DNA of 64,000 bases from Styela clava (Eukaryota): positions 13,888,001 through 13,952,000 of the forward strand of contig NC_135260.1 in assembly GCF_964204865.1 (NCBI RefSeq), read 5' to 3'. Positions within the stretch are counted from its first letter, which is position 1. Each line of letters starts with the position of its first letter. Position numbers and translations under genes: made by a program. The notes under the pieces were generated by a model. The model ran no database searches. It was not told where the DNA came from and saw only the letters and a list, made by a program, of their open reading frames with translations. Of the stretch, positions 12,649 to 60,233 are shown one piece after another.

Positions 12649-15648
12649 GGGGAGATGCGGGTGACTTGAGCCACGAGGAGACTTGTTTCACCCCCAAAAT
12701 TAGCAACATGCATTAGTAATAGAATGCTCGCGCGCCCTCTGTTGGTAGGTTGTGTCATTCCTTTATATTTGGCTGTGAGAAGCAGACGTTCTGTAGCTCT
12801 GGTGGAAAACAGTCAATAAAAAAGCCGGAATCGCAGCAAAAAGTGAATTTCATGGTCTCAGGTAATATGTTTACTATTAATAATATTACAGGTCGTGATT
12901 TAGTCACATTAAGTCATTGTGTAGTCTATGTTGTGATGCTCTGATGGAGTCTATTGCAGCGCACGTCGAGTAGTCATTCGGCAGGAGCGGAGCTCAAATG
13001 GGAAGATGGCCGATCATGGGAGGGTTGATCCAGAGATCACCAGGAGGGTTGCTCCGTGGCTCAACGCTCCTGCATTGGATATATTTTTCATCACATTTTT
13101 TCTTTATCAGACGATGCCGCAAACATACAAAAGAAAATCAACCCGTGGAAGTGATCCGGCATTAGTCGGAAGGGCGGCAGAAGCGTTAACAGAGGGATGC
13201 AGTATTAGATCGGCAGCGAGAACATTTGGTGTTGACCGAATGACGCCTAAGCGATACGTGGATAAACAAAAACATGACCTGCTTGGTACAAGCGGATACA
13301 AAAATTGCAAGCTCAAGAATATGATATTCAGTCCTGAAATGGAAGCTGAACTAGCTAGTCACACCAAAACACTTGCAGCAAACTACCATGGCCTATCCAA
13401 AGATAAATGCCGATGTTTGGCGTATGAGTTTGCGGAAAGAAACGGTGTTAATGTGCCAGAAAATTGGAAAATCAACAAAAAAAGCTGGTCAAGGATTTTG
13501 GCTTGGATTGAAAGCACGCAATAACCTTGCAATTCGAAGTCCAGAAGCTACTTCATTAGCCAGAGCAACGGCGTTTAATCGCCATACAGTGGGACAGTTC
13601 TACAAAAACCTTGCCAAAGTAATGGACCAACACAAATTCGAGGCACAAGACGTATATATATATAACATCGACGAAACAGGGTGCCATACGGTGCAAAAGC
13701 CTGAGAGTATTGTTAAGGAAAAAGGGGTTAAGCAGATTGGTTCTGTCACATCAGGGGAAAGAGGTGAGCTGGTAACCGTAGTCAATGCGATCAAGGCTGC
13801 TGGTGGATTTATTCCGCCCTACATGATATTTCCTCGTGGTATTATCGTAATTACTTCATACGAGGTGCGCCACTGGGATCTGACGGTGCGGCCACCAGAT
13901 CAGGTTGGATTAACGAGGAAACGTTTGTCAACATCTCGATCACTTCATTAAGCATACACGCTGTATACCCGACAGAAAGGTATTGCTCATCTTAGACAAT
14001 CACGAGGCCCACGTTTCACTGACAGCTGTTGACAAGGTAAATGCGAACGGAGTTGTGGTGTTGACCATCCCTCCACACACGTCCCACAAACTCCAGCCTT
14101 TAGACAAGACTGTTTATGGACCATACGAAAGAGCCTACGCGCGCGCGATGGATAATTGGATGAGGTCCAATCCGGGTAAGACTGTGGGTATATACGATAT
14201 AGCTCATTTGGTGAACGAAGCTCACATCTGCGCATTTGTACTGCGTAATATCCTAGCTGGCTTCCACAGCACTGGTATTATGCCTTTCAACAGCGACGTA
14301 TTCTCAGATGAAGACTATGCGCCATCTTCAGTTACAGATCGCGAAAATCCAGTTTGCTCGGCAGTAGACAATGTTGAAAGCGTGTCAGGTTTACAGAGAA
14401 ATCCCGATACTCCCACGAACCAAAAAGATAACACAATTCAATCAGCTACTGGCGTTGAGAGCAATACTGGTTTGACTAGAGCAGTGCAGACTACCAACGC
14501 GGAGACTCCTTATGTGTCTCCAAGTGATATACTACCTTTACCGAAAGCAGGGCCAGGGAAGGTGAAAGCTTCCAATAGGAAAAAAGGAAGCACGAAAATT
14601 TTGACAGACACGCCAGTTAGAGATGAAATAGCAGCGAAATCAGAAATGACTAGGATAGAAAAAAATAGAGCAAAGAACTTCGGTCGGGCTAAATAAATGC
14701 TCTTTGCAAACAAGAAAACAGTTAGAGTGAGGGTAGCACCATCCGGATGTAGCACTTCTTCGAGCGGAAGTTAATCTAACGAAAATGTATTGTGCGACGA
14801 TACTGATGACTCAGAGGAGGAAGATCAAAATATTATCGAGGGCGATTTTGTCATAGTCAAGATTAGTGGAAAATCTCGAACTGTTCACCACGTCGCAAGA
14901 GTTGATGCTTTCGATGGAGAAGAGTTCGAAGGAGTGTTTCTCCGCCGGGTTTTAAGCGTAAATGACCCAACTACTTTTATTCTAGATGTCGAAGATGAAG
15001 CACTTTGGTCGAAGAAAGAAATTGCAAGAAAGTTACCAATCCCTAGCATTATTGGAACTTCGCACCCAGTTCACGTTCTCTTGTGACCTCGATGAATGGA
15101 ATCTTTGATTTTTACATACTCTGTCACACGCTATTTCAACTTATGAATAAACGTTTCTTTTCGATTTCTAGGTGCTACCAAGGTGTAATAAGAAGGCTTC
15201 GGTGGTATAATTTGTTTCCATTCTGTATTGACTGACAAAAATAAATAAGATTATAGATGTATTGACTCCTATTTAAGATTAGCTAAGTTAAATTTGCCCA
15301 GTTGCCTCACTGTTCCGATACAGAAGTATTTGCTTCTCACATTTGTGAAAGATACTCTCCCGATTGCAACTTAAACGCTACTTCCCGTGCTATTCTGCAT
15401 GTAGCGGCTCAACTCTCATCAATGGTATGCACAACTCTCCTCAACATGCAGGAAATTTGTGACATCTGACATCCCTTTTTAAAACTGGTATAACTCATAA
15501 ACAGGGTCAGTTGGATTAAAAGAGACATAACTGTAATATAGCAGAGGTAATGACCTTCGGATGATATGAGCGTCTTCAAGTTGCTATGAACGATTGAGGA
15601 GATATAACTAAATATATAAAAAATGGCTCATCTCTCCCGCATCTCCGT
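12649..15648 (+). mobile_element. Full-length but decayed pogo-superfamily DNA transposon (DD35D; Passer/Fot-like spacing)
   Basis: 25-bp imperfect TIRs (ggggagatgcgggtgacttgagcca vs the reverse complement of 15624-15648, 20/25) flanked by TA on both sides; encloses a transposase pseudogene. Confidence 0.88.
13114..15108 (+). pseudogene. pogo/Tigger-type DDE_1 transposase, disrupted
   Basis: MPQTYKRKS start, psq-like HTH (SIRSAARTFGVDRMT), CENP-B-like HTH, YNIDETG, GERGELVTV, LILDNH-x-LQPLD with 35 residues between the 2nd and 3rd Asp. Frameshifts near 13480, 13840 and 13932; stops at about 14694 and 14772. End coordinate approximate. Confidence 0.9.
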
Positions 15649-17112: not shown

Positions 17113-17794
17113 CGTGCGCCCGAAGATAGATAGATACTATGTTGAAAGGTTCCAGTGATTCCAAATCGAGACCTTATTGGCCGAATTCCAAGTAACTCGT
17201 GTGGGGCAGCACTTAAATACGTTACTGTTGGAAGATGGTAGTCTAAAGGTTGTTAATATTCATGAAAGAAGGCTTAAATTTGACAACAGAGAAATGCTTA
17301 AATATGTGGGTGCTCAAGTCGCGCGTTTGCTGAAACTATATACAAGCGTGATTAAATAATGTGTCCTCGTGAACTATCTCGTGAAGTTTTGGACCATTAG
17401 TTCCGGACAAGAAGCGATTTTTTACAGTAACATTAACAGCCTCGACGGCAACTAGTTAGTCAAAGGACTTGCATGGCTACTTTGCGTCCAGTACCCTCAG
17501 TTCAAAAAAAATAGGATGAAATACACTGGAAATTCTAATGGCTGAATGGGGTAAGACGTTGGTTGTTTCACAGTTTTCGTTGCAACAGTCGTCACTGAGT
17601 GGCGCTCTTGTTCCGAAATTTCAGGGATTTCCCCCTTTACGTGCCGTACTGCCAGGTCTGCAACAGCTTTGCTTTGTGGGGTTGGGATAATATTGACATA
17701 TTTATTCCGGGGGAGGCGAAAGACGTTATTGTCATACAGTACCGTACAATAGACTACTTTCGTTTATGCACGAGAGTTTTATAAAGCTATAGAA

Positions 17795-20700
17795 ATGACG
17801 ATTTATGTCGTTATCTGTGCCGTTTTGATTTCGTTGCTGAAATTGCTGTTTTTGTCTTCATAGTGAGTATTTCTGTTACAATGCCAATATTTTCTGATCT
17901 ACAATACTGGTACCGTATCTGTTTCTATATTTTAATGATTTTTTTGAGTCAACTCATCACAGTATCTTTGAGAATTTGAATAGAATAGAAAATTAGTGGA
18001 GTAAGATGGTTACCAGTTCCGGGTTATTGCTTTTCTTCATTGGAAACATTTATCGACGCTAAGCATAATTTATTTACATATATCAGTATATTGTATACAT
18101 ATTATATAATTTATATACGAATAGTTTCATGAGAAATAGCTGATATATTTTTTGTAATTTTAGCAGGTCAACAGATTTTGAAGTTCACCGCAACTGGCTT
18201 GCAATCACAAATAATCTTTCACATCATAAATGGTATTATGAAAATACATCAGAATGGACATTGGATTACCCACCGTTTTTTGCATGGTTTGAATGGAGTT
18301 TATCACAGGTCAGCTTTATTTAGGTTTTTTTAATAATTCTAAATTTAGGCAATAATTGCTATCATATAAAACACTAATTTAATAATTGGAAATTGTTTTC
18401 ACCTGTATAAATCTCCATAACATATTTTTCAATTTCTGATTTGAATATTTTTTTTAGGCTGCGAAATATTTTGATGAACAAATGTTAGTTGTTACTAATC
18501 TCAAATATGATTCTGATGCAACAATATTGTTTCAAAAATTATCGGTAATATTTGCTGACTTTCTGTTAATCTATGCAACATACAGGTAAGATAAACTTTA
18601 TTTTTGTAAGTGGACCTGTTTTCACTTGATACCAAAGAACTAACCAAAAGATGAGGGTTCAACTTACCCTGCGAAAACAGGCACAACATTTGTTTCAGAT
18701 ATTATTCCTATATCGAGTAGACTCATCTTACCAAATGGGTGTAAATTAATCTAATTATTTTTGATAGTATTTTTAACTAATAGATTTTTTGGTTTGAAAG
18801 ATTATAAATTAGTTATGAAATTAAAAATTACTTTATGTGAATACGAGGAATTCCATTTGAATGAGAATATGTAATTTAATTATATATAACATAAAGTTAC
18901 ATAAAGTTCAGTTACTGCTATCAAGCCTGGATTGAAGCAGCCAGATAACTAAGTAGTAAAAAGTTAAACATTTTACTCTCTGTTCATGAACAGTGTATCC
19001 ACAATTTTGATAGTAATTGCAGACAAAATTTCCAGCAGGTTTTGTTCTCAAATATATTTGATTTTTTCTAGGTGCTCAACCGTCCTTCCAACGTCTAAAG
19101 AACATTCAGGGAAAACACTTCAAGCAAAATATGAACCTAAAATACTTTCTATTCTAATTATTTTCAATGCAGGATTGTTGCTGGTTGATCGTATCCTTTA
19201 TTTTATCAAGATTATACTGTATATAGACACTTCGTAATACAATGTAATACCAAAGACTATTGAACTCAAAATATCTTAAAAAACCGTTGAAATGTAAATC
19301 TAGCAATATCCAATCATCAAATTTTGTAAAATGGAGCAGATTAAATTTTATTGCATGTTGCTTTTAGTTTGGAATAATGGTATATGCCAAAGCAGAATGT
19401 AATACCAATTTTGTTACCTCAATATACAGTAATTGATGAATAAGGAAAAGGGTAAAAATAGATAGCCATTGCGAAATAAAAAACAAGATTACTGGAGCTC
19501 AGAAACTTGATGCTTAGATCACTAACTGACTTGCCTTGTTTTTCACTGCACTCCCAAACCTAAACAACATGAAAATGATTGGGTGTCAAGGGAATGAAAC
19601 ATTGCTATTTTAAAAGAAACTGTACCGATGTAGTCCTTTCCGTCCAGTTAATTCTTCCCATGAGCCCTGGCAATTTCCCGTGGTTATCAGGATGTTTATA
19701 AAATGTATATTACATAGGTTCTCTTCATATATTTGTATGTCTGAAAGATATCTGAATAATTACAATTTACAAATATTACTTAATTCTAGAATAATGTACA
19801 TTTCATTATATTATCTACTCACAATATTTGATTCCTCAACAATTCGTTTTTGAAATTAAATTAAAGATATTCATTTTCAATATAATGGGTTTTTGACCGG
19901 GATGTTATTTCTATCAATGTACAATATTTTGGATGGCAATATCCTATGGGGATCTTTCTGGTTTGCAACTTTACTCAATTTTAAACATATTTATTTGTAT
20001 ATGGCTCCTGCATATGGAATATACTTATTCAGAATATATTGCATGGATCCCAAGAAAAGTAAGATATTTTCATTGTAGTAAATTCACCAACCATGTAATA
20101 TTTTAAAATTGATGTAACATTATTATTTCACTTCTGTCCTAATCCATTGTTTTTAAGTATTAACATTACATAAAATAGATCATTCACCCAGTGTATTAGT
20201 TCAGACATGGCAATAGCAAAAATAGTGTTGAAATATTTAACTAGTTTAAATTTTGTGTAGTATAAACATGAAAGGTGTGGTCTGATCAGTCAGTGGTTAC
20301 CATGACCACGTCATGCCACTGAATATTTTTTGTATAGTCTTTTAGTACATATTCCTTTGCAACCATTGCTGGTAATCTGTGGTGGAGTAGTATTCATATA
20401 CTTCATGGTTGGCATAACAACCAATGGTCCCAAAGCGAGGTATGGCATGCTCCTATTTTTTGTATCAGAATAAAATCATTGTATAATGAAGTCAGAATTT
20501 GAAGACAAAACATGCAATTAAACTAGGTATACACTAATATGATTGAACTGTAGATACCATTAAATATTACTTATTTGGCAACTTGAAACAATATAGTATT
20601 TTGATTCCAGTTGTTGCACTATAAATAAAACAGTATGTTTTTTTTCCTGAAATTATAGTATATACGAACTAGACTTAAATTTATTTCAATAATATATGCG

Positions 20701-23064
20701 AACAAATTTTACAGGAGGAATTTCTTCTATTTTATCATTTCATCCGTTAAGGTTATTGCAACTCGCAGCAATTGTTATTCTAGTTTTTTCTGCATCGTTT
20801 GTACCTTTTAAGGTAGGTGATCTAAAATTATTTTACAAGGTTTTTAAGAATAGCTGTTTCCATGTGCAAATGCATCAGTGATTTATGAATACTTTCAGAA
20901 AAATTATTTTTTCACGCTTTTTTTATAATTTAAATTTGAAGATTTGAAGTCGAGTTTGAAGATTTAATTATTTGTTGAGAAATAAATAACATTAGTGAGA
21001 CAGTAAGTACTGTTTTAAGAAGATTTATTCAGAATTCTGTATGAAAACTCATTGAAAAATTTATATCCAACGACATAGTTTTGTGCATTTCCTAATAGTC
21101 AAACTGGATTTTGTCAGGATCATCTCCCACAAGTGATATCAAGGCTATTTCCATTCAAGAGAGGATTGACTCATGCATACTGGGCGCCTAACTTCTGGGC
21201 ATTATATAACTTTCTTGACAAAATACTGAGTATCGCAGGTAAGGTCATATTGTCGGTATGTGAAATTATGTTTCCCTTTTTTTGAATTATCCCCTTCTTC
21301 ATTCCCTACTTTATTTATACAGGAGTTAAATTCAAGTTTATACATCCTAGTCAGCTGAAAGCAACATCATTTTCAAAAGGCCTTGTAGAAGAAGCAGAGC
21401 ATGCAATTCTTCCATCACCAACTCCTCTCATCACAGTTATAATTACTCTAGTTTTTATTATGGTAAGTACTTTAGATAGATATTCACGCTCCATCGAATA
21501 ATTGATTGAAAATGCATCCGGTTGAAATTTTCAAGATGATTAGTGAACGCCTTATGTACAAGTGTACCCTCATTTACTACACTATTATTTATGTGTAAAC
21601 TTCTATGCGGTAAAGTGTGATATATTATGTTATATAGAGTTAATTAGTAGTCATACTAAAATTCTTTGATATAGATAGATAAACAATCCAAAATATCACA
21701 ATCTACCTTTTCCAGCCTTGTTTGATTGATTTATGGTTCTGGCCGAAGGCATTAACGAGCAAGCATCTCGGGAATCAGTTTATCCGTAGTGTTGTTTTTA
21801 CTTCATTGACGTCATTCATGTTTGGTTGGCATGTTCATGAGAAAGCAATACTAATGGTGATATTGCCATTAACTCTTCTATCAGTTTGTGGAACCAAGTA
21901 TGTATGGACACATATCGTGAGTTGTATACTTGTATATATAATCTATTTTGTAATCCAAATTTTGTAAATAAATTTATGTCCAGAGGATGTTTCCATTATT
22001 ATTATACGTAATTTTCGATGATGTATTTTTTTAGGAAAGATGCAGAAATTTTTGTCTTCCTACAAGCAGTTGGGCATTATTCATTGTTCCCATTATTGTT
22101 TATGCCGTTTGGTATGTATCACTGTTGTGTATCTTGAAATATCCTTATTTTCATCTCTATTGATGGTATTTTTGTTTTTCAGAAACTGTGACGAAAATTA
22201 GTATAGTTGTTATATATACAATGTTGTCATTTGAACTCTTACATAAATTGAAGCAAAGGTACATGTCTCTTACTAATACCATCATTAGTAGTTAGCATCA
22301 TTTCTTAGTACTAGGAGTTCATAGATTTAGATTCAAAGAGCATAAATTTGAACTCTTCATGTATAATTTAGTTACTTTGCATAATAACATTCTGTTTATT
22401 TTTTAGTAACTTGAAAGATAAAAGTAAATGGTGCCTCCCTTTATTGGGCAGATTTGAAACCCTGTACTTATTTGGACTTGTTATCAATGAAGTGTATTGT
22501 AGCGCTTTGCACAGGTATATTATTTTTGTGGTGCTCTAATTTACTTTACGCCAAACTACCTATTTATGGCAGATGCTCATTTATTTTGCTAATTGAGCAA
22601 ATTTGGATACATATGTGTCTGAATGGCCATCCTATAAGATTTGTTTCAACAGTGGATATTTCAAAGAAATCAAAACATCCTGATTGGGTCACTAGCTTTG
22701 ATGTATACCAAGTATGGAGTGTCATCATTTATAATCTAGTTATGTTCGTTTAATAGTTTCAATTTTAGGAATAAGATCATTCCACTTGTCACAAATAATC
22801 TTCTCAGCTGTTTTCATTATCAAAGCTACTGTGCTATAACTTAAATATTTTGTAATCACCTATTCAATGTATCTCAGATTCATGCCCTTCTCGGAAAAGT
22901 TTGAGTTTGTCCCACTCATGATGACATCGACGTTTTGTGCTGTTGGTGTAACCTGGTCATGGATTAAACTTGGCTACTCTATATTTGTTGATCGATCTGG
23001 ATATCCAATTGAATGGATGGAAAAACCCAAAAGCCCTCAAAAAAGGTTTTTGAAACCTGATTAA
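17795..23064 (+). CDS. ALG8: Dolichyl pyrophosphate Glc1Man9GlcNAc2 alpha-1,3-glucosyltransferase
   Basis: 13 exons (17795-17862, 18164-18308, 18458-18585, 19072-19190, 19867-20058, 20715-20812, 21118-21238, 21323-21462, 21716-21897, 22035-22111, 22183-22258, 22407-22514, 22878-23064) sum to 1641 bp in frame. Motifs [74 protein letters not shown]. Confidence 0.96.
19191..19866 (+). other. U12-type (minor spliceosome) GT-AG intron in ALG8
   Basis: 5' splice site GTATCCTTT; branch-site-like TTCCTCAAC at 19832-19840; purine-rich 3' end without a polypyrimidine tract (ttaaattaaag); splicing restores VDH-IHFQYNG. Confidence 0.88.
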
Positions 23065-23789
23065 TAACAGCACATGTACGTCATGCTGTAGATGCCTATT
23101 TCAGTTTTGGTGGTCTCATGCAAGGTCTATCTATATCCATATGGGATGATAACAACACCGACGACCCGCTCTTATTTTTAAGAAATACAATATAGTAGCA
23201 ATTCCATCCAACGCCAATTTCAAACTAAATCTTTACATCGGACCTTTTTTATACTTCAAAAATACAAGTGAATAATAATGATGTGTTTTCAATGCCACAT
23301 TGCTCATTCAGCGTAGACAGATGTTTCTGATATATATATATACCTTTCTAACCTGGTCCGGAATGCTTTAGGAAAATGAACAAGAATACAGATGGTAAAA
23401 TTATTTTTTGCGTACGGGGATCATGTTCGCGGTATTTGCCTTACTAACTGTGAGCCATGCTCGTCCCTACCCCCGTAAGAACAGTACCGGTACAAACGAG
23501 AACAGAATTCTGACCGGTTTCAGCTACTTTTCAGACATACCAGCTCAACTAATTTGGCTACTTTCGTTGAAAACTTTAGCTAAGTTTTTACATTGACATT
23601 TTAATATTTCATAGTAATCATATAGAAATATATCAATATTTTCCATGTGAAAATACAAAAGGACGACATTATATTTGCGCAAAGTTACGCGCACACAACT
23701 CTGAGTATAATGGGTCGGGTGCAAACGTGGCTGGATTGGTTTACAGTTTTATAGTTAAACCACAAGCTGACATGGGAACATTCCACAAA

Positions 23790-25325: not shown

Positions 25326-27490
25326 ATACAATATACAGATATAGGTACCTCAATATGATCAACATGGACTGGTACCGGTAACCGGAGTGAAACTGTGATT
25401 GTCATATGAATAATCCGTTCTATCGGCTCTCATTTAATTAAATATCAAATTTCATCTTGTATCTTACCAGATCTTTATCGGACTGGGTGGACTTAGTGAC
25501 CTTTCGACCTACAGAGATATATAAATATATTTCCAGTTCAGTTTTCCACCAAAGATATATATACCGTATTTCCAGGCTAATAAGTCTACCCGGCAAATAA
25601 GACGATGTCTATTTTTAGCACTCAAAAAGAGGGTTTTTCCAATAGCCGTCCAATAACACGGGGTAGAAAACTTGCTTCTCTGTTGGTCAGCTAAAGACTA
25701 CATGCGCTAATAATTTTATATTGTTAGAATTAATCATGTTTATTTGGTAGAATCAAACTCACAGAGTTAACTATTCTCAAAAATAAAGCGGTAATTTTAA
25801 GTTAAAAAGTGGCAATCATTTTGGATAACATATAATTTTATAGGGTAATAACCAGATCATGTTTGTTTGGTAGAATCATACTCACAGAATTAATATTTCT
25901 TCAACAAACGGAACGGCTAAACGGAAGGGTCCTAAATCACTTTATCTCCGTAGCCGTGTTTCTCCTTAAAGTACGAATAAGGGAGGGCGTGAATAGGGAG
26001 GGGGTGCTTCATGACACCAGTCAGTTATCACTACAAGGGAGTTTTTAAAGAATATGACAGATAACAGCTGCCAGTACAAAGTTAATTATGCATCATGATT
26101 GGAGACTCTTTTAATCGAGTACATGATAAAAAACATCAAACCAAATATAAGATTCACACAAATCCTGTTCTAAACTTACCTGCCCAATAAGACGCCCCCC
26201 CCCCCCCCAAATAAAAGGTGGTTTCGATCCCACCACTAGAAGGGGGCATTAAGGCATAACTGGTCATGAGAATAAACGCAACGCATTCCAGCATTCCGAG
26301 TCAGACGTTAGGATTAGATGACTAGATCCCAGGGAGCAGGAAAGCTGATGCCCCAGCTATTCCCTCTATTTTTGTGTGTTGTCTATTTTTGCATACGTTT
26401 CGAAACTTGAGGGCAACCCAGTTCCCCGCCACAGACAAGGGTAGGGTAGCAGCCTATAAGTCGTGAATCCAGAGAGGTACCGTAATGCCCTAGAGCCTGT
26501 AGAGCTGGGAGGCGGACAACTCGACTACACGGACAACTCACCAGAGACAACTCGACTACCTGGAGACCTGGTGAGTTGTCCGTCTTTTCGCATTTTCTAC
26601 GATGGTGTTTTAGGTCTATAGAAAAGCGTTTTTGATGTTTTTAGTGCTCAAATGTCGAGAAAAATACATAAATATTCTCTAGAAAGCATTTTTATTTGTA
26701 TAAGTGGCTTATTTTAATCATGTTGTATGAATACAAATACAGTCTACAGACGAAATTGGAGTAACGTTAGCGAAGTTAGACTGTTGACTTATAGGACTGT
26801 GTTCGTTTAATTTTATGAACTTTATTGGTATTAAATGTTTTGAATGAGCACATTTGAATATATTAAAACCTTTATACTTCACAGTAACACTTAAATATTT
26901 ATGAATGTGAGCTTAGTAGTCTGTGATTGCAGTAGTCTAAACTCGCCAACGGCAGTCGCCCGTCAACTCACCAGCAAACGCTCTGCGACGTGACGTCATC
27001 GATGCTCGAGGTAAAGACAACTCGACTACCGAGCAACGAGAGGCAGACAACTCACTAGTCGAGCAATCGCTCTGCGATATAGATGCTCGAGGTAAAGACA
27101 ACTCGACTACCGAGCAACCTCACTAGTCGAGCAATCGCTGTGCGATATCGATGCTCGGGGAGAAGACATTGCTTTGCAAAACGCAGACTCAATAGTTGCA
27201 TAGCATTTACTTAGTGCCGACTGATATTAGTTGTAAGCCAACTCACCACGGCAAGGTTTCAGTCATAGAGTTGGAATTTCTTTTTGCAGAAGAAAACCAG
27301 GAACAGATAGGCACTGTCGCTGCGCCTGGCAAAGAAACTGGGCCGAAGAATGGATAAATTTAATATGATATTTGAATACTAAACGTTATGGGGAAATTTA
27401 ATGGATGGAAGGTTTTGTTTTCTTTTTCGTTACGAATATTGAATTTTATTTGAATACTAAACGTTATGGGAAATTTGCTGCTTTACATAC

Positions 27491-27983
27491 TTACTCTTTG
27501 CAATACTGCGGCCCGTAGATCCTTGAACACCTCCGAAGAAGAGAGTCCACAGATAACTCTCCTTCCTTAAACTGTTCCCAAACATGTTGCACCCTCTCGT
27601 TGGCTTCCGCATACCTGCCGTTGACACGCCCCACAACATTCTCTTCCAAAATATCCACAACGTCCACCTCTATCCCTATACTTACCTCGTACATTGTTGA
27701 GATTAAACTGTAAAAAGGCATATTTTTCCGAGTTATACTGTTGAAATGGCGGTGCCAACCTTCCAGATGATTGTTGGTTCTTATTTCTACGTCGAATACT
27801 GACCAATCCTTGGGAGTCCAGACACTGTTGTATAACCATGTGTTTTGAAAATATTCGGCGAAGTTCTTGAGATCTTGAGTATGCATCTTTTCTTTCAGTG
27901 ATTTGAACCTGGACGTGATAAACATAGCAGGTATATAGCACAGCGCCATGACATGCTTTATCAGGTCTCTTGTCCCAGCGTCC
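27491..27983 (-). pseudogene. Inverted duplicate of the last MULE transposase exon
   Basis: 152-aa ORF identical to 28549-29007 except one V/A change; includes the splice acceptor but no upstream exon. Confidence 0.92.
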
Positions 27984-28002
27984 CTAAAACAAAATAAAAC
28001 AC

Positions 28003-29007
28003 GACGCTATAGTAAACGGTGCACGTCACATAATCTTCTCAACAAGAAAACAACTTTCACTCCTGTCGAAGTCAAAAAGCTGGTATATGGATGGGACGTT
28101 CGACGTGGTTAAAGACCCATTTTATCAACTTTTTTCTATCCATGCATTCATCAGGAGCGGCGAATGCTCGAAACAAATTCCGTTTGTTTTTGTCCTTATG
28201 TCCCGGCGCAGGAAAATTGACTACGTCCACATCTTCAATGTAATTAACAACCTACTCACCCTTTCGTTTTCCGGTGCACGTGTGAAGAGATTCGTACTGG
28301 ACTTCGAAGCCGCAACGTGGCAAGCACTTTCTTCAGTATGGCCGGACGTCGAAAAGCAGGGATGCTCTTTTCACTTCACTCAGGCCATCATGAAGAATGT
28401 GCGCCACAATAATTTGGCTCGCCTATACAACAAGTGAGTGGTTAACCATATTTATATATATGTCTTTGTACTTCTTCCACTTCTTTTGTTTTAACATGTT
28501 TTATTTTGTTTTAGGGACGCTGGGACAAGAGACCTGATAAAGCATGTCATGGCGCTGTGCTATATACCTGCTATGTTTATCACGTCCAGGTTCAAATCAC
28601 TGAAAGAAAAGATGCATACTCAAGATCTCAAGAACTTCGCCGAATATTTTCAAAACACATGGTTATACAACAGTGTCTGGACTCCCAAGGATTGGTCAGT
28701 ATTCGACGTAGAAATAAGAACCAACAATCATCTGGAAGGTTGGCACCGCCATTTCAACAGTATAACTCGGAAAAATATGCCTTTTTACAGTTTAATCTCA
28801 ACAATGTACGAGGTAAGTATAGGGATAGAGGCGGACGTTGTGGATATTTTGGAAGAGAATGTTGTGGGGCGTGTCAACGGCAGGTATGCGGAAGCCAACG
28901 AGAGGGTGCAACATGTTTGGGAACAGTTTAAGGAAGGAGAGTTATCTGTGGACTCTCTTCTTCGGAGGTGTTCAAGGATCTACGGGCCGCAGTATTGCAA
29001 AGAGTAA
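28003..29007 (+). pseudogene. 5'-truncated MULE transposase (catalytic domain; exons 28003-28433 and 28515-29007)
   Basis: RHIIFST..QL.LL..SWYMDGTF, VLDFE, GCSFH (CxxH), YFQNTW, RTNNHLEGWH; GT-AG intron 28434-28514 joins the frames; the N-terminal DNA-binding region is absent. Confidence 0.92.
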
Positions 29008-31131
29008 GTATGTAAAGCAGCAAATTTCCCATAACGTTTAGTATTCAAATAAAATTCAATATTCGTAACGAAAAAGAAAACAAAACCTTCCATCCATTAA
29101 ATTTCCCCATAACGTTTAGTATTCAAATATCATATTAAATTTATCCATTCTTCGGCCCAGTTTCTTTGCCAGGCGCAGCGACAGTGCCTATCTGTTCCTG
29201 GTTTTCTTCTGCAAAAAGAAATTCCAACTCTATGACTGAAACCTTGCCGTGGTGAGTTGGCTTACAACTAATATCAGTCGGCACTAAGTAAATGCTATGC
29301 AACTATTGAGTCTGCGTTTTGCAAAGCAATGTCTTCTCCCCGAGCATCGATATCGCACAGCGATTGCTCGACTAGTGAGGTTGCTCGGTAGTCGAGTTGT
29401 CTTCACCTCGAGCATCTATATCGCAGAGCGATTGCTCGACTAGTGAGTTGTCTGCCTCTCGTTGCTCGGTAGTCGAGTTGTCTTTACCTCGAGCATCGAT
29501 GACGTCACGTCGCAGAGCGTTTGCTGGTGAGTTGACGGGCGACTGCCGTAGGCGAGTTTAGACTACTGCAATCACAGACTACTAAGCTCACATTCATAAA
29601 TATTTAAGTGTTACTGTGAAGTATAAAGGTTTTAATATATTCAAATGTGCTCATTCAAAACATTTAATACCAATAAAGTTCATAAAATTAAACGAAAACA
29701 GTCCTATAAGTCAACAGTCTAACTTCGCTAACGTTACTCCAATTTCGTCTGTAGACTGTATTTGTATTCATACAACATGATTAAAATAAGCCACTTATAC
29801 AAATAAAAATGCTTTCTAGAGAATATTTATGTATTTTTCCCGACATTTGAGCACTAAAAACATCAAAAACGCTTTTCTATAGACCTAAAACACCATCGTA
29901 GAAAATGCGAAAAGACGGACAACTCACCAGGTCTCCAGGTAGTCGAGTTGTCTCTGGTGAGTTGTCCGTGTAGTCGAGTTGTCCGTCAGCCGTAGAGCTG
30001 AAAGATAGTACGGTAGCGCGATAGAGGTAATATATGTAACTCGCTAGTTGTAGGGCAATTGGGGTTAAGTTAAATTTTATAATCAATTAAGCTAGCTTCA
30101 GGGGAATCCGCCTCGATCCCGACCGCATATTTCGGAATCGATAGATTTTGGAAAATACCACAAGCGTTAGAATACAACAATTCCGCTAGTATATCTGTAT
30201 ATAAGCGGAAAACCTATAAACAATCCTCGAGAAGACCCCCAGGTTGATTTATGGACGAGACGTTTAACCTCTTTCACACCGGGACCCTTCAAGCCTCACT
30301 TCTGTAAAACTCCGTCTTTAAAGCCCCCTAGTCTTATTTCAAAACTATGAAAGACGTTAAATACGAACGGCGATCGTGTACCGGTATATTAGGAAATCCT
30401 ACTCCCTATATGATTCTGCCAATGTTAAATACTTATAGAGAGTCTTGCACCTAGTATGATAAAACCGTTGGCCGACTATACCCACCGATGCCCAACGTGC
30501 GAATACAAAACCCCGTATGTCTGTATGTGTCAAACTCTAATGTAGAGTGGATTGTACATAAACCTGTTTTTAATGCTTAAATATTTTTTGTATGTACATT
30601 TTTTCTGGTCAAATAAATTAAATATTAGGAAAGCTGATGCCCAGCTATAAGTATAGGGCAGCCACGATTAAACCCCATGTATTCGTATTTATTTACGGTT
30701 GAACCATAACCTCTCGTTCGGTTGCCAAATCAATGTAGAGTACCGTATAGCTGTATAGGGTTATTAAGCCAGTTATTACTGTATTAATGTAGGGAATTGA
30801 TGGTTGAACCGGTAGACTACCGATGATGGGTTACGGTAGTGACGGGTCAGCGGGTACCGGTACCGTACCGGTACGTGGGCGCTACCGGTACCCTACGGCC
30901 TGCGGTAGGTACCGGTACGGCGCGAGAGCCGATAAGTCCAGCAATCTACTCGCACACAATTACATCAGTGTTAGCAATTTCTTTCTGTCTTTTGTTTGGA
31001 TGTAACTTAACGTTAGTTACATTTGATAAAGAAATGCATTTATTACTGTATCAACTTTTCTCTGGAAATTGTTAATATTTTTATTGTTAATATTTTAATT
31101 TTTAATATTTTAATATGTTCATTGTTAATAA

Positions 31132-32230: not shown

Positions 32231-32253
32231 ACAGGCAGACAGGGCTACAGACG

Positions 32254-32504
32254 GGAGGCGGACAACTCGACTACACAGACAACTCACCAGAGACAATAAA
32301 AATGCACTTATACAAATAAAAATGCTTTCTAGAGCATATTTATCTATTTTTCTCAACATTTGAGCACTAAAAATATCAAGAACGCATTTCTATAGACCTA
32401 AAACACCACCGTAGAAAATGCCAAAAGACTGACAACTCACCAGGCCTCTAGGTAGTCGAGTTGTCTCTGGTGAGTTGTCCGTGTAGTCGAGTTGTCCGTC
32501 AGAC
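32254..32504. mobile_element. MITE derived from the same MULE family as 26508-29991
   Basis: Begins ggaggcggacaactcgactacac like 26508; the last 200 bp closely match 29790-29990; TSD not recognisable. Confidence 0.88.
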
Positions 32505-33405
32505 CTATGATTGTTCTTTTAACAACAATTTGAAAGTTATTGATTTTATTTTCTAGTAGATTTTATTGTTTATTTTATATTCAAATTGAACCCACTTGAG
32601 TAATGTCAATTTCAAAGACTTGCCCATGCAGCCATGACAAACAAGCGTTCTCATTTAGTGCAGCAATCTGACCTTACTGACTTAAAAAGATTTCCTGTTG
32701 AATAAATGTGAAGTAAAAATTACTGTTTTTTGTTATTGATAATTCAAGTATGCCACTATAAATAAACCTTAAAAATATTTTTGGGTCATGAGATTTTACA
32801 AAAAGTATTCCCAAAAAAGCTTGGGTCACTTGAAAAAAATGTTGGAATGTAACCACTGGCAGACTGGGTTAAGCTACTGTATTGATAGACACAATCATTT
32901 ACTGGGCTACATATTATTCTTATTTACGGTAGTCATTGCTCTATACTTAACTAGCTGGATTTCCACCTCGTTTAGAACAAACTTCCAGATTGTGCTCTGC
33001 GATCGGCTGTTGTCGCTGCATCATGAAAACTTTGAATTTTTTGATATTCTTCTTTTTATAATTTTATTATTCAACTGCTTCCAAGGCAACTGAACATCAA
33101 ATTTTGAATTCGAACCATTATATGTCACTTTGTGGTCTAAAATATTCTGTGAATGATGTTATTACAGTATTAAGTACTTCACTTGTTGAATTAAACAACC
33201 AAACAGTACAATGCTGGAATGTAGGCATTTTGTTATCCATCAATAATACATAAATAAAATGATTTAAACTCACCCTTATTCTGTTATTATATCCCTATAT
33301 ACAGCATGCAATTATAGTGGTATAGAAAGTTTAAATAAAAACATTCTTGATATAGATAGAATATTTGCGAAATATTCATAGTACATACTGACATAAGAGG
33401 CCATC

Positions 33406-34713
33406 ATGTCCTCAGAAGGCAAAGATCGCAAAGTTGCATACTTCTATGATATGGACGTATCACATTTTCACTACGGACCTGGTCATCCCATGAAGCCTCA
33501 CAGGCTTGCCCTTACACATAGTCTTGTTCTGCATTATGGACTGCAAAATAAAATGCAAATGTATAAACCATATCGTGCAACTCAACATGATATGTGCCGA
33601 TTCCATTCAGAGGAGTATATCAATTTTCTGCAGAGAGTAACACCGATGAACTTACAAGGCTTCACCAAAAACTTACAAATGTTCAATGTTGGCGATGATT
33701 GTCCAGTTTTTCCTGGACTATATGATTTTTGCTCAATGTATACTGGTGCATCTTTACAGGCAGCAACTATGCTGAACAATAACAAATGTGACATAGCGAT
33801 AAATTGGTCTGGTGGGCTTCATCATGCGAAAAAATATGAAGCATCAGGTTTCTGCTATGTCAATGATATAGTAATCGCAATTCTTGAACTTTTAAAGTAT
33901 CATCCCCGTGTCTTATATCTTGATATTGATGTTCATCATGGTGATGGTGTTCAGGAGGCATTTTATCTAACTGATCGAGTCATGACTGTTTCATTCCACA
34001 AATATGGAAATTATTTCTTTCCTGGAACGGGTGATATGTATGAATGTGGTGCAGAAAGTGGGCGGTATTATTCTCTGAATGTTCCTTTGAAAGATGGCAT
34101 CAATGACCAAACATACCATCAATTGTTTAAGCCAATTATGCGTGCTGTGATGGAGTCATATCGCCCAACTTGTATTGTGATGCAATGCGGAGCAGACTCT
34201 CTTGGATGTGATAGATTAGGATGTTTCAATTTAACCATAGACGGACATGGAGAAAGTGTGAAATTTATGAAAGAGTTTGGAGTTCCACTTATGTTCCTTG
34301 GTGGGGGAGGATATACTGTAAGAAATGTTGCGAGATGCTGGACATATGAAACCTCAATCATAACAGGTCAAGAAATAAGTGATGAATTACCATACAATGA
34401 ATATTTTGAATTTTTTGGGCCTGATTATGTCCTGCGCCCAGATACAAGTCAAAGGGTTGAGAATCAAAATACCAAACAATATCTCGACATTCTCAAACAG
34501 ACTGTTATGGAAAACTTGAGAACGATTGCTCATGCTCCCAGTGTTCAAATGCATGAAGTCCCTCCTGATCTTTTAACATTTGAAAACTATGAAGAAAACA
34601 ATGATTTCGATGTTCGAGACCCTATTTCTCAACAAGAGCAAAGGATCGAAGCCGATAATGAATTTTTTGATGGGGATCAGGATAATGATAAGGAAAGTGA
34701 TGTTAGTATATGA
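33406..34713 (+). CDS. HDAC3: Histone deacetylase 3 (single coding exon, 435 aa)
   Basis: [73 protein letters not shown], and the HDAC3-specific tail [13 protein letters not shown]. Confidence 0.98.
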
Positions 34714-35501: not shown

Positions 35502-37293
35502 ATGATAACGCCATTGTTTGAAATCACACAAGATGATATATTCCTGTATATCATGATTAAAGCTCCTTATTCCAAAGTATCAGAAGCAGATATTTACATA
35601 GAGGATGGAAGCTTTAGATTCCATGCAAAGCCATACTTTTTACGGCTCAGTTTTTCTGCTTCACTCACTGAAGATGACAGAGCAAGCTGTGTTTATGATG
35701 TTGAAAATGGAGAGTATAAACTAAAAATAGCTAAAACTGATCCTGGAACACATTTTGAAGATCTTGATATGTTGACCAAATTATTGACACCAGCAGGAGA
35801 GAGACAGGTAAAATATTTGTGCACGATCGACTTTTGAGAAAAAATGGATTCAAAGTGCGCGCTATGGTTCATAAAATACAATAAATATTTACAGTATCTA
35901 CTTCCAAATATGTCCAGGATTTCTAGCTCGGCAAGAGATGAGGTTTTACATTTGATGAAGATTTATCATTCTTGTCTGGAATAAGCAATTATTATATTTT
36001 AAGTTATCATATATCAGAATTTTAGTAAATTTCAGATAAATACATTGGCGGTTAAAATTCACAAAAATACAACTAAAACAAATCATTTCACATTGATATT
36101 TTGCACAGCACTTGTTTCAAATTTAATTGAATCTTCAACTAAATGTCTGTCTTTTTCTGAAAGTAATTATTGCTTTATTTATCTTCTCACTAGTAAAAAG
36201 CTGTCTATACTTTGTGCTATTATGTTCCTACTGTTTAATTAAATTAAAACTTTAAAATTCTCAGGTGAAGAAACCATTGATTGAAGTTATTGAGAATGAC
36301 GATAATGACGGAATCGGTGAAGATGATGAGCAGTTTGATTGGAGTTATCCTCAATTTCTTCCCAACAATGAACCAACAGAATCTTTGATCGGATGTGGAT
36401 ATGGATTTGCCAATTCGAAGTCTGGTGTATTTTCAAAACTTCAAGAAGACATTCACGATGTGATACAAATCCGAAATATAGAACAATCGTCTATAGAAAA
36501 CAGGAGTTCTGAAAGAGTTGAATATGAAAATGATAAATTCAATCCGGAACATTATTTAGCTGATTTATTCGAAGAAACAAATATTGAAGAATTAATCAAT
36601 TTGACTCCACCTTGGAAAACTGCTAAAGCTGATGGAATCAATTTTAGTGAGAAAGATAAATTTATTTTGAAGAATTTTCCGAATATAGAATATCTTCTTG
36701 ATAAAGTCCAAACGCAATCTGTTTATATGGGTCTTGTAGACATTTTATTCAGTTATGCTTACAATTGGAGATGTACGGAAGGTGATTACAGTGTGGAGTC
36801 ACCTTGGAATATAAGGACTGTAAGCACCACTTTATCATGGTGTGCTACTGATTCGCTTATTCACAAAACTTTAATAAACTCGTACAGACGATGCTTGATA
36901 TTTCCTCTGTATAGAAATTGGAAATTGACAAAGGCATGTCATAAGGATGTTGCAAAAATTTTGTCGAACGGCAAGAAGTTTATTTTAAAATGCTTATTGC
37001 AAATTCATGACTTATTTGCAAATAGCGATCCATATTATGTGCTCAATGATATCTATATAAGAGATTATTGCATTTGGATACAAAAGTCTGGACCTGATGT
37101 TATACAATCTTTATCCAAAGCTGTTAAAGAAGTGAAAATCAAGAAAAAAGAAGTTGAACTTGATCTCGTGGAGTTGGAAAAAGCCGCACATTTAATGTTG
37201 GAGGAACAAGAATCTGAGCAATCAGAACAGTCATTATCGGTAAAAGATTCTACAGATGAAATATCATGTAAAATTGAAGAATTAAAAATATGA
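35502..37293 (+). CDS. SHQ1: H/ACA RNP assembly factor SHQ1 (exons 35502-35807 and 36265-37293; 444 aa)
   Basis: N-terminal CS domain MITP.F...QD..F....PYFLRL, F.DLDMLTKLL; SHQ1 domain YGF, F.PEHYLAD, LVDILF.Y, ESPW.I...S.TLSW, RR.L.FPLYR.W; CAG|gtaa..tctcag|GTG phase-0 intron. Confidence 0.95.
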
Positions 37294-39655: not shown

Positions 39656-40755
39656 TTTTATCAATTTAGACTTCAGTATTATACAAAAAAATTTATTGGA
39701 ATATCAAATTTACCGTTCACCTTTTTTATGTGTCGTGCAACCTAATTATATTTGCTCATTAGTAATTATTAACTGACATTGCAAATCAGCCCGCAGAGTC
39801 GCACTTTTAAAAATACCCACATGTTCCCTAGGAGTCGCCAAAATCCAGGTACTGTGATTTTCAGTTCTGGATGCCTTCCCTATACTGTTGTGCGGAATGT
39901 ATGATGAGAAAGCATACTGTAGTGTTTAGAACTTTAGAACAGCCATTATGGAATGCTTGTACCAATGTAACAACATTTTTGGAGAGCCATAGTCTGTCTA
40001 TAGGTTCCTCCGGTGGTGTCATATCTTGTACAGGTGTATAGCGGGTTAGCTATATTAATTGATTTTATACTTTTACAGTTTCTAGTTTAAAATATGAGTA
40101 GCAACAGATTGGTGGTTCTGTAGTAATTCACATGACTCCAAGTTATGGCCTTGACTGCTGCAGAAAGAAAACGCAGATCAAGATCGAAGCGAAAACTAGA
40201 AAACCCAGCAAGGGAACAAGAGCAGAAAAGAATACATATGCAGCGTTATCGCCAAAATAAAAAAAGGAAATTTAATTTGCTGTCTCCATTAGAACAAGCT
40301 AAACAAAGAAACATAGAAAGGAAAAGGGAGCGTGACATTAAACGTAAACAGAGAAGAGCGAAAAGTGCTGAAAAACAACTAAAAATATCTTTTGAATCCC
40401 GTTGTGGCAGCAGAAGTGCTAAGTCCAAGGCCATATAAAGGGCCAAAAAAGCGTTGTCATCCAGTCAAGCGGAACTATATGATTTAATTAAGACCCGTAC
40501 GGTTGAAGTTACTGATGGCCAATCATTCAAAAGTGCATTTGACATACTCCAGTCACGAATATCAATAATTTACAAATCAAAAATTGAAAAACACCTGGCA
40601 TTACACAACAGTAAAGCAAAATTTGATTCTGCTAGGCCTCTTGTTAGGATTTCACATCACATTCAAATGGAAAATCACCAACCTTGGGTGTTTTTTTTAA
40701 CAGATCAGATGTTGGCGTTGGCTTAAAATTATTAACGAGTTAAATTGAGTATTGT

Positions 40756-41504
40756 TGATCGGTATGGTGAATATCTGTGGCACACACTCCCTGACTTCAA
40801 TCAGCCAGTAGCCTATTTGTTGTGCCAGGAATCCTTCTGATAAGTCAACGATGGGAGCTTGCCTTCTGGGTTTGGATACGCTTAACCTGACTGCCGCTGA
40901 AATTCCAATGCACTAAACCAGACACAGTTCCGAATCGAACTTGTTTTATTTTACCACTCAACATAAAGTGCTATTGTGGCCACTCGTGTAAGGTCAGGTG
41001 ATTTAAAAATAGTTTGGACTGCAACGCAACCAAATCCTACTTAATCAGATATACATATGTAACTAAATGCAAAAATAAATACAGTTTTAAGTACAATCCT
41101 AATAACTTTATCCCTATTTCAACACATGTCTACATAAAACACAACCCTAAGTTCCCTAAAATACAACCCTAAGTTATTATTGAATCTACAACAAAAACGT
41201 GCGGCCCTTTTACCAGTGCTGATAAACCAAGAGACTGTTGCAACAACAGGTTGCCACAATATGCACCATATACCAATTACGAATGGGCACTAGATTGCAA
41301 TCAGAAAGTATTATGTCAATTGAATGCGAGTCATCAAAAATGGATACTAAGTCTATACCTAAAACAGTTCTAAATAAATGAAATAATATACAAATACCAA
41401 TGTGCAGTGACTAAATACATCAGAATATTTGCATAAGAAAAGCAATATGTGGCAACACTATATGCACTGCCTTATTAGGAATGAAACGGCAATCATCCTC
41501 AACA
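40756..41504 (-). repeat. 3' LTR
   Basis: Direct repeat of 47450-48198. Confidence 0.97.
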
Positions 41505-41681
41505 CACCGGCCCCAATCATTTTGTTCACAAAATTATTTTAAACAATGAGGATGATTTATCCAACAATCGAACACAATGAAAACATGCAATAAAATAACA
41601 TACTGAGAACATGAAATGAAACAACATATACAAAAAAATGACCTGGACCACTGAACATGTTTGGCAATAAAGGACAGAAGC

Positions 41682-47408: not shown

Positions 47409-47449
47409 AATCCACCCGTAGTCGGGTACCGTGTACTATTTTTAAATGA

Positions 47450-48198
47450 TGATCGGTATGGTGAATATCTGTGGCACACACTCCCTGACTTCAATCAGCC
47501 AGTAGCCTATTTGTTGTGCCAGGAATCCTTCTGATAAGTCAACGATGGGAGCTTGCCTTCTGGGTTTGGATACGCTTAACCTGACTGCCGCTGAAATTCC
47601 AATGCACTAAACCAGACACAGTTCCGAATCGAACTTGTTTTATTTTACCACTCAACATAAAGTGCTATTGTGGCCACTCGTGTAAGGTCAGGTGATTTAA
47701 AAATAGTTTGGACTGCAACGCAACCAAATCCTACTTAATCAGATATACATATGTAACTAAATGCAAAAATAAATACAGTTTTAAGTACAATCCTAATAAC
47801 TTTATCCCTATTTCAACACATGTCTACATAAAACACAACCCTAAGTTCCCTAAAATACAACCCTAAGTTATTATTGAATCTACAACAAAAACGTGCGGCC
47901 CTTTTACCAGTGCTGATAAACCAAGAGACTGTTGCAACAACAGGTTGCCACAATATGCACCATATACCAATTACGAATGGGCACTAGATTGCAATCAGAA
48001 AGTATTATGTCAATTGAATGCGAGTCATCAAAAATGGATACTAAGTCTATACCTAAAACAGTTCTAAATAAATGAAATAATATACAAATACCAATGTGCA
48101 GTGACTAAATACATCAGAATATTTGCATAAGAAAAGCAATATGTGGCAACACTATATGCACTGCCTTATTAGGAATGAAACGGCAATCATCCTCAACA
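47450..48198 (-). repeat. 5' LTR
   Basis: Direct repeat of 40756-41504 (offset 6694); minus-strand AATAAA at 47644-47639. Confidence 0.97.
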
Positions 48199-52200: not shown

Positions 52201-52997
52201 CCGTTGATGTATTCCAAGTTTCTATGAATTCTGGAACACAGTTCACCCGCTTTTTGCAAAGCATTCGACTCTTTCAATTCTAGTTTTAGTTTCGAGGAAA
52301 TAATAGCTCGCGGGTCACGCAGAAGATGAATGACGTATACATCTTTTCCTCGCTTTTTGAAGTCTTTGTAGATTTCTTCGATATCTTTCAGAGAACATAT
52401 CCTGAGCACCTTGAAGGCAACAACTTCAGTCTGAGAACAAATCGTTGAAATTACGTCTGCTCGCAATGGAAATTCGCATTTTTGTGCAATCGATAAAAAG
52501 GTGGAACTTTTACAGAATTGCTTGTATCGAATACTCAAAGCGTCTGATCGGGAGGCAAAACATGCATTGTTTATGACACACCCGGACACTGTATCGCTTG
52601 CTTTTGTGAAGTTTCTGGCCAATTTGAATGCACTTGCACTGTCTGAAAATTGACAGTTCATCATTTTCTTCAAAGTTTCGAGTCTTTCCTCGTTGAAAAA
52701 GTGACAGTGTGGTGTGTATGGGAACAAAGGCTCATAGAGGTAGAAAGCGTTTGTATTCTTATTGAACATTTCTCCCATGAAGGTAGAACCTGACCTTTGG
52801 TTGCCGTATAATATCACAATTTTCTGAGGTTTTTGAGCATTTGAAACAGACATTAGTTTTCTTATTTGGGACGTGACAGGGAAATATTGTTTCACGTCAA
52901 TCTTCGTATACCCCATACCGTGGAATGCATAAAATACTATTGGTGTCATTAAACCCATTAGGAATATTCTCCGCCTCGCAAATCTGTTTACAGACAT
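49210..52997 (-). CDS. Carbohydrate 6-O-sulfotransferase, CHST1/3/4/5/6 family (copy A, about 412 aa)
   Basis: Exons 52997-52193, 51383-51290, 49761-49650, 49437-49210 join in frame; N-terminal TM anchor, 5'-PSB QRSGSTFMGEMF, YLYEPL, 3'-PB HLLRDPRAIISS, YLRIRYED, TIRDP....KWR. Confidence 0.9.
50436..50597. mobile_element. hAT MITE in a sulfotransferase intron
   Basis: TIRs cagtagtgggattca / tgaatcccaccactg (14/15); perfect 8-bp TSD gatataag; internal gaaccgg repeats. Confidence 0.9.
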
Positions 52998-59910: not shown

Positions 59911-60233
59911 ACCCGTATAAAAATTTAAATATATACAACTTCTAATCTATAGCTATGATAACCTACTATTTGCTAAGCTTACATTAGTTCGCTTGAAGCG
60001 CGTCTTTCTAGTCAGTTATAACCATCAGTTGTGCTTCTTGATTTGCCTCGGGCATAAAAGTTCACCAATATTTCGATTGGCAACGTTTAGATAGACGCAT
60101 TTATTTATATGATTTTTGGATGTGTTTTAACAGCGTTTCAATCATGTTTACTGTGTAATCATTTCCAAGACGTACACTGATTGTATAGCAATATTGAATA
60201 AATAACACAGGCCTGGTATGTATGTATTATTGG

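Follow-up and report, generated by a model that had tools for sequence, protein, structure and literature searches.

The DNA analysed here, a window of 64,000 nucleotides from contig NC_135260.1 of Styela clava, contains a Mutator element folded into a long palindrome with transposase sequence in both arms, and the question that it raises is whether this locus is a dedicated silencer of its family, comparable to maize Mu killer as the original prediction had it, or one mobile member of a foldback-type family. We favour the second answer, with a probability of roughly 80%: a non-autonomous foldback-type Mutator whose terminal inverted repeats (TIRs) of about 740 bp grew to 1.49 kb, likely by inter-arm repair copying into the transposase gene, and which is likely a passenger mobilised in trans.

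Boundaries and architecture of the element

The two arms (26513-28001 and 28497-29985) measure 1489 bp each, differ at five sites (26658, 26801, 26948, 27094 and 27666) and by no gaps, pair at coordinates that sum to 56498 and enclose a spacer of 495 bp, which reproduces the geometry first reported for the palindrome. External to the inverted repeat lie two unlike hexamers, GGGAGG at the L end (26507-26512, forward strand) and GGCTGA, reading inward, at the R end (29986-29991, reverse strand), each followed by CGGACAAC, and other copies are built likewise. The target site duplication (TSD) is GTAGAGCT (26499-26506 and 29992-29999, both on the forward strand), and its 8 bp match the TSD length of the family, which among the complete copies (n = 28) is exact in 26, has one mismatch in one and does not match in register in another. 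A perfect 9-bp TSD had been proposed, and the corresponding direct repeat GTAGAGCTG is indeed present, but this length was rejected, since it fits only three of the 28 complete copies and in all 28 the ninth base, G, already belongs to the element, of which it is the first base. In the 8-bp register the element spans 26507-29991, so that the right end stands as predicted and the left end moves from 26508 to 26507. Across the genome the L end gave 75 exact 22-mer matches, against none for a reversed control.

The right arm (28497-29985, forward strand) comprises the last exon, the 3' UTR and the native TIR (about 29249-29991), and the left arm (26513-28001, reverse strand) holds the same succession inverted: native TIR, 3' UTR and last exon, together with 18 nt of intron that include the splice acceptor. 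The native TIR, of approximately 740 bp (26507-27249), carries repeated GACAACTCGACTAC and CAACTCAC(C/T)AG motifs and inner repeats of 68-81 bp, probable transposase-binding sites; raw reads of other copies depart from the element at 27249 and 29249, the approximate limits of the native TIR. The last transposase exon is found at 28515-29007 on the forward strand, where it carries TNNHLEGWH, which in this family would represent the third catalytic residue of the transposase, and again at 27491-27983 on the reverse strand, with one amino-acid change (A to V). The unique spacer (28002-28496, forward strand) consists of a 5'-truncated MULE (DDE) exon, which runs to 28433, includes the motifs MDGT, VLDFE and CSFH and matches PF10551 (E 9e-11, 42.5 bits against a cut-off of 27.6), and of the 5' part of the last intron (28434-28514, forward strand, GT..AG, 81 nt), whose 3' 18 nt fall inside the arm and whose YNK/DAG junction is consistent with database model P0004. 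Microhomology at the 28001/28002 junction amounts to 1 bp. The PHD/FLYWCH-type 5' exons are missing from the palindromic copy. Hence the description of an internally deleted Mutator element in which transposase sequence is duplicated in inverted orientation, the arms contain the entire last exon and 3' region and the promoter-proximal part of the gene is lost, was upheld.

Long inverted repeats are difficult to assemble, and the palindrome might be a fold-back chimera or a mis-joined repeat; contigs of runs X1 and X5 cross 28001 into native upstream sequence, and no listed piece spans 28001/28002. Nevertheless, such an artefact is barely credible, given that the arms differ at five sites, the L and R termini are distinct and correct, the TSD is exact, the spacer is unique and a like layout with common junctions occurs at independent loci, and the other runs probably come from different individuals, which were not obliged to carry the palindromic copy.

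The element is inserted in a 5'-truncated copy, of about 0.75 kb, of an L1/Tx1-like non-LTR 3' tail (26340-30648, forward strand) bounded by a direct repeat of about 20 bp, likely its own TSD, and the C8 paralog of this host copy has a zf-RVT domain upstream (E 3e-07). Joints between 26479 and about 30000 occur in contigs and one read, drawn from one DNA-like run, one Hi-C run and four RNA-like runs. They were not retained as evidence of an empty allele or of read-through transcription at the insertion site, since their break points, and the 5/8/6/8-bp indels of the RNA-like contigs, are those of the C8 paralog. A MITE-sized member of the same family, of about 250 bp and 93-94% identical to the TIR ends, lies at 32253-32504 (forward strand).

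Palindromic copies elsewhere in the genome

The copies examined were the top-scoring 40 of 479 candidates, and the counts exclude the loci without both ends (L036, L042, L044, L045, L047, L057, L059, L060, L063 and, of L067-L086, everything except L085 and L086). The last exon occupies both arms over at least 100 bp in seven of the 29 complete elements and over at least 300 bp in six, proportions that do not represent a genome-wide frequency because the copies examined were top-scoring ones; the automated listing gives 8/30 and 7/30 instead, because L033out contains L033in. The end points of the arm extension vary among copies, and TIRs that are natively about 600-740 bp measure 1.0-1.6 kb after extension in several of them. 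A compound junction of near-identical sequence recurs at five loci whose exact 8-bp TSDs all differ, and it lies L to R in L032, L033in and L038/39 and R to L in L034 and L037. In this junction-defined subfamily the interior thus runs either way with respect to the asymmetric ends, and palindromic copies continued to transpose after forming. A one-off killer locus, as originally envisaged, does not fit a layout found in 7/29 complete copies, which had moved since. Across 30 elements a marker of the 5' region runs L to R in 19 and R to L in four (L031, L034, L037 and L054), is reduced to a 39-bp match in one and is lacking in six, the palindromic copy included.

An intact autonomous member was found in the assembly neither by a protein search (143/143 candidates scored) nor at the DNA level with the L054 5' region as query (40 of 429 candidates scored). 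These searches gave only two decayed collinear copies, L054 and L070, about 85% identical, the former of which retains a homologue of the FLYWCH-type exon. In a better-preserved sister family, proteins P0001/P0002 match PF04500, a domain carried by several homologues, with an E of 3e-4 and 21.3 bits, under the cut-off of 23.6, and both families have an N-terminal PHD-like finger.

Probable exchange between the arms

Private alleles at arm positions 131, 634 and 652 occur in both arms of the palindromic copy and are absent from the arms of nine other copies; likewise, in 9/10 copies tested, one to five private alleles per copy are common to both arms, a pattern suggestive of copying from one arm to the other. 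The arms of the present copy differ at 4/591 sites, the nearest other copy lying at 0.85%. In five older short-TIR copies (L048-L051 and L056) and in L086, tested alongside them, the inter-arm difference of 3.4-4.9% is above the distance to other copies, and in four of nine young long-armed copies (L032, L033in, L034 and L035) the arms are not closer to each other than to those of other copies, so that homogenisation appears to be patchy. In an allele-phase test for crossover within the arms, only one of 13 shared variable sites (253, in L034) tracks end type as predicted, and the inner and outer parts of the arms (one versus four mismatches) do not differ significantly in divergence (Fisher p = 0.08). 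Intermediates of TIR extension were not seen among the copies examined, and the proposed mechanism is deduced from the finished structures.

An aberrant transposition, by alternative or hybrid ends, might instead have fused portions of two copies in head-to-head orientation, with no repair copying between arms. In maize, alternative transposition of Ac/Ds reportedly yields silencing inverted duplications and would offer a precedent by analogy, and the family does include nested and tandem-end copies (L032, L033, L038/39 and L042). Yet the palindromic copy terminates in L on one side and R on the other and is flanked by a clean TSD of 8 bp, as in ordinary members, its internal junction lies away from any transposon end, and the alleles private to it are carried by both arms, and consequently this origin is disfavoured and seems very unlikely.

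Returning to extension by inter-arm repair, we hypothesize that an ancestor with its L end at the 5' side and its R end at the 3' side would have acquired the inverted 3' half of the gene in its left TIR by template switching, after which the FLYWCH and PHD exons may have been lost by deletions of varying extent. Crossovers between the long arms could then have inverted the interior in some copies, the lineage of the palindromic copy putatively among them, further inter-arm conversion would preserve the likeness of the arms, and the intact ends would permit ongoing transposition.

Predicted hairpin RNA and related systems

The arms pair in perfect stretches of 142-571 bp, and the central 1499 nt have a predicted folding energy of -1113 kcal/mol; a read-through RNA would thus be expected to pair as a long duplex, as the original prediction stated. 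A Mu-killer-like silencer, in which transcription of both arms yields a duplex of about 1.5 kb together with small RNAs that shut down the family in trans, would be served by such duplex runs and by a stable fold, and the arms have 1165-1237 of 1460 21-mers in common with young copies and 540/1460 with one older copy, so that small RNAs would have targets. In addition, contigs of four runs contain family sequence with spliced GT..AG joints, and a review describes, for Tc1, RNAi supplied by the fold-back of read-through TIR transcripts (PMC3878927), which may serve as an analogous precedent. The RNA-like contigs that match the family differ from the palindromic copy. A comparison aimed at A-to-I editing, of A>G and T>C places with C>T and G>A places, gave 38/37, 37/25, 28/24 and 52/44 in the four runs, counts that in contigs of mixed copies are uninformative. 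On the other hand, the same layout exists at no fewer than six other loci and TIRs of 740 bp would by themselves allow any copy to fold back, which makes the locus not special; moreover, palindromic copies kept transposing once formed, an intact target was not found in the assembly, the sister family has 0/1460 arm 21-mers in common, and the region preceding the PHD exon on the 5' side is missing from the palindromic copy. Even for maize Mu killer the model of long-hairpin read-through is contested, according to the accessible text of one paper (PMC3440606). We therefore regard a silencer at this locus as unlikely, and hairpin RNA, if any, would be a by-product common to several loci and not the selected function of one. 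A dispersed, family-wide counterpart of Mu killer, in which TIR extension produced hairpins, spreading and flipping passengers silenced their own transposase and the near-identical-armed copy ranked among the strongest dsRNA sources, is speculative and equally improbable.

As far as the available text describes it (PMC3440606), Mu killer is similarly an internally deleted Mutator derivative with an inverted duplication of about 1.3-1.5 kb containing transposase sequence. The likeness does not extend to a killer locus, since Mu killer duplicates two promoter-side TIRA ends and 5' mudrA, whereas here L and R ends flank a duplicated 3' exon; Mu killer, moreover, occupies one dominant locus, lies between two genes and has demonstrated silencing activity, whereas the present layout is multi-locus and mobile and any activity of its hairpin would be hypothetical.

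A closer parallel to the arms is found in Galileo, a foldback-like element of the P superfamily. In the portions of the Galileo reports at hand, its long, internally repetitive TIRs absorb neighbouring internal sequence, some of it from the 3' part of the transposase ORF, copies so enlarged are non-autonomous and retain intact TSDs, and recruitment by repair from the other TIR is proposed in Drosophila mojavensis (PMC3573991); copy 147 of D. willistoni has TIRs of 1575/1608 bp, in which transposase sequence takes up at least 545 bp, on either side of an 872-bp central gap (PMC4168063). Inverted non-TIR internal sequence within both TIRs, with ends and TSD intact, is thus common to both systems, and they differ in that a MULE domain is present here, that the layout typifies most transposase-bearing copies examined as well as a mobile subfamily, and that the asymmetric ends reveal flips of the interior, which the available Galileo text does not appear to report. 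A literature search of limited coverage returned nothing on point for interior flips between TIRs (among the papers listed, from titles and abstract starts) or for Ciona endo-siRNA, and no paper on foldback elements in ascidians or on Galileo gene conversion, and the Bari paper (PMC4877112) had no bearing on the question.

With its MULE (DDE) domain, long TIRs and 8-bp TSD, the element has the features of the Mutator/MULE superfamily, for which TSDs of 8-11 bp, and of 8-10 bp in the Phantom group, are given in the part of the source available (PMC6446971). Tm1 of root-knot nematodes, a Mutator/Foldback element of the Phantom subclass (PMC3169594), resembles the present family, in what could be consulted of its description, in that a short motif recurs within its composite TIRs and that asymmetric, non-inverted terminal motifs (7 bp, against 6 bp here) lie external to the repeat. 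Its transposase combines FLYWCH and MULE; here the FLYWCH part is represented by the below-cut-off match in the sister family and by the homologous exon of L054, and its exon is missing from the palindromic copy. Tm1 differs in its 9-bp TSD, and the PHD-like finger is an addition of the S. clava family and its sister relative to Tm1/Phantom; recruitment of a transposase exon into the arms was not seen in the consulted Tm1 text. The best reading of these features is a putative Phantom/Tm1-like element.

The uptake of a transposase gene end by long TIRs is already known from Galileo, and the present family is a clear chordate Mutator example of it. Should small RNAs from the arms silence the family, this would be a case, in an animal, of a transposon turned off by mobile palindromes derived from it. 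The asymmetric 6-bp ends act as an inbuilt orientation marker, exposing inversion of the interior in one subfamily and making inter-arm conversion countable, which makes this family a convenient test set for recombination between long inverted repeats.

Structure and ends of the palindromic copy

Upon comparison of the window with itself, the segments 26513-28001 and 28497-29985 were found to constitute its sole large inverted repeat, with arms of 1489 bp each displaying 99.66% identity (5 mismatches and 0 gaps) around a spacer of 495 bp. The spacer harbors a 5'-truncated exon encoding a MULE domain on the plus strand (PF10551, E 9e-11), which according to the sequence is followed on the same strand by an 81-nt intron and by the last exon, with its TAA stop at 29005-29007. 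This last exon, together with the final 18 nt of the intron, is also present in inverted orientation in the left arm. At 28001/28002 intron sequence is fused to the DDE exon partway along its length, with a microhomology of 1 bp when scored relative to the native upstream sequence of L031, another copy of the family. The palindrome described in the original prediction is therefore correct, and we estimate at about four in five the probability that this copy is a genuine foldback Mutator, young and non-autonomous, whose arms have come to include part of its own transposase.

In runs X1 and X5 the contigs display native sequence at 28001 instead of the junction, as would be the case if the palindrome were a chimera of assembly; against such a chimera argue the five places at which the arms differ, the two distinct ends of correct type, the exact target-site duplication (TSD) and the junctions common to independent loci. 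Raw reads of other copies diverge from the sequence of the foldback element at 27249 and 29249.

The comparison set comprised 35 more loci (36 stretches) retrieved by DNA search and 20 by protein search. With the element start placed at the G of GGGAGG (26507), an 8-bp TSD is exact in 26 of 28 complete copies, has one mismatch in another and is not matched in register in the last, and 8-bp repeats likewise border two copies added later (L085 and L086). The TSD of this family is thus 8 bp, and the 9 bp initially proposed fit just 3 of the 28. Complete copies pair a single L end (GGGAGG-CGGACAAC) with a single R end (GGCTGA-CGGACAAC); the exact L-end 22-mer occurs 75 times in the genome and its reversed control 0 times.

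Insertion site and surrounding sequence

The element is inserted in a 5'-truncated L1/Tx1-like 3' tail (26340-26506 and 29992-30648), flanked by a direct repeat of ~20 bp. A copy of this retroelement on C8 (L088) has a zf-RVT domain upstream and ends immediately ahead of a frame which, from reading its translation, we take to be histone H2B-like; the other copies are clustered on C8 at 7.5-8.0 Mb. A histone-targeting retroelement, comparable to Tx1, is suggested. The joints at the insertion site are not taken as an empty allele, because the contigs spanning it carry the indels of the C8 paralog. Relative to this paralog, the ~0.75-kb flank (26480-26506, 30008-30530) displays several 5-9-bp insertions resembling short duplications, one directly adjoining the TSD, which are possibly excision footprints of 8-bp-TSD transposons.

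At 2.3 kb from the palindrome, a MITE-sized family member without a clear TSD (32253-32504) forms with the left arm a second inverted pair of 194 bp. The window also contains uninterrupted frames for a histone deacetylase (33397-34710) and SHQ1 (36256-37290), both covered by RNA-like contigs, a spliced gene with 12 introns (~17700-23330), and two related uninterrupted minus-strand frames (52182-53006, 58969-59946), presumably carbohydrate sulfotransferase-like. An LTR retrotransposon on the minus strand (40753-48198), which we take to be Bel/Pao-like, has 752-bp LTRs with one differing site and frames of 1757 aa and, separately, 159 aa, and a fragmented Tigger/pogo-type transposase lies in three frames at 12937-14693 (DDE_1, E 4.5e-13).

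Comparison with Mu killer and the sister family

According to PMC3440606, Mu killer carries two promoter-side TIRA ends with ~1.3 kb of 5' mudrA per side and silences MuDR dominantly, its read-through hairpin model being disputed. In contrast, the Styela copy duplicates the 3' exon and retains both end types, and consequently the likeness originally drawn holds for the inverted transposase duplication but neither for promoter-side ends nor for a 5' duplication. A transcript of the element would fold and 1165-1237 of the 1460 arm 21-mers match young copies, but 0 of 1460 match the sister family and no intact family member was found by protein search or among the best 40 of 429 DNA-search candidates in the assembly; a Mu-killer-like silencer is unlikely. 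Family sequence occurs in contigs of four runs with spliced joints of a neighboring gene, and differs from the foldback copy.

The sister family (L067-L069), with ~70% protein identity, is a possible transposase source; in its proteins a MULE domain is accompanied by a PHD-like and a FLYWCH-like domain, both of which score slightly below the Pfam cut-offs. Database proteins 98-99% identical to it are from Styela clava, the closest named relatives thereafter being lancelet and bivalve proteins. The TIRs of the sister family are made of 67-bp tandem repeats, and it is better preserved than the family of the foldback copy. By description (PMC3169594, PMC6446971), the Styela elements resemble Tm1/Phantom in having TIRs of composite structure that end in short, asymmetric termini, and in the MULE domain with a putative FLYWCH domain.

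Palindromic layout as a family trait

The palindrome is a trait of the family, as in 7 of 29 complete elements both arms hold 100 bp or more of the last exon, and in 6 of 29 both hold 300 bp or more. These elements, 30 in the script count since L033out around the nested L033in was included, were top-scoring copies (the DNA search scored 40 of 479 candidates), so that 7/29 is no genome-wide rate. The nesting of one family copy in another lies at L033:1749-8020; the L038-L039 copy holds an LTR retrotransposon that has long open frames, and a tRNA-like SINE, left arm alone, was labeled by eye at L031:4008-4359.

One near-identical compound junction is shared by L032, L033in, L038/39, L034 and L037, with a separate exact TSD at each of the five loci, and therefore palindromic copies transposed after formation. 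The interior runs from L to R in the first three and from R to L in L034 and L037; over 30 elements, the 5' marker has the L-to-R orientation in 19 and the opposite one in 4, gives a short match only in 1 and is missing from 6. The window copy lacks this marker and is oriented as its nearest relative, L031. We infer that flips arise by crossover between arms, for which allele-phase mapping offered 1 informative site among 13, while orientation misassembly is a possible alternative. A single literature search of limited coverage returned no report on point for interior flips between TIRs.

Regarding copying between arms, which differ at 5 sites, the foldback element has three alleles in both arms (131, 634 and 652 from the end) absent from the arms of 9 other copies, and 9 of 10 copies tested have 1-5 such alleles. 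Over the outer 600 bp its arms diverge by 0.68%, versus 0.85% from the nearest other copy; own arms diverge by 3.4-4.9% in six older short-TIR copies, and in the young L032, L033in, L034 and L035 they are no closer than between copies. Judging from shared private alleles and arm divergences, conversion appears real in the young clade, yet patchy.

As described in PMC3573991, Galileo TIRs lengthen by taking in adjacent internal sequence, the proposed cause being repair templated by the other TIR. The layout of the Styela element is nearly that of D. willistoni Galileo copy 147, whose TIRs measure 1575 and 1608 bp and include 545 bp or more of transposase (PMC4168063). Older copies of the Styela family have TIRs of ~600-740 bp, and in the main older subfamily, mapped onto the collinear, decayed copy L054, the last exon faces outward, upstream of an oppositely reading 5' region and PHD exon. 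In the simplest reading, the 3' half of the gene would have been copied, inverted, into the left TIR of an ancestor, and internal deletions differing between copies would have followed.
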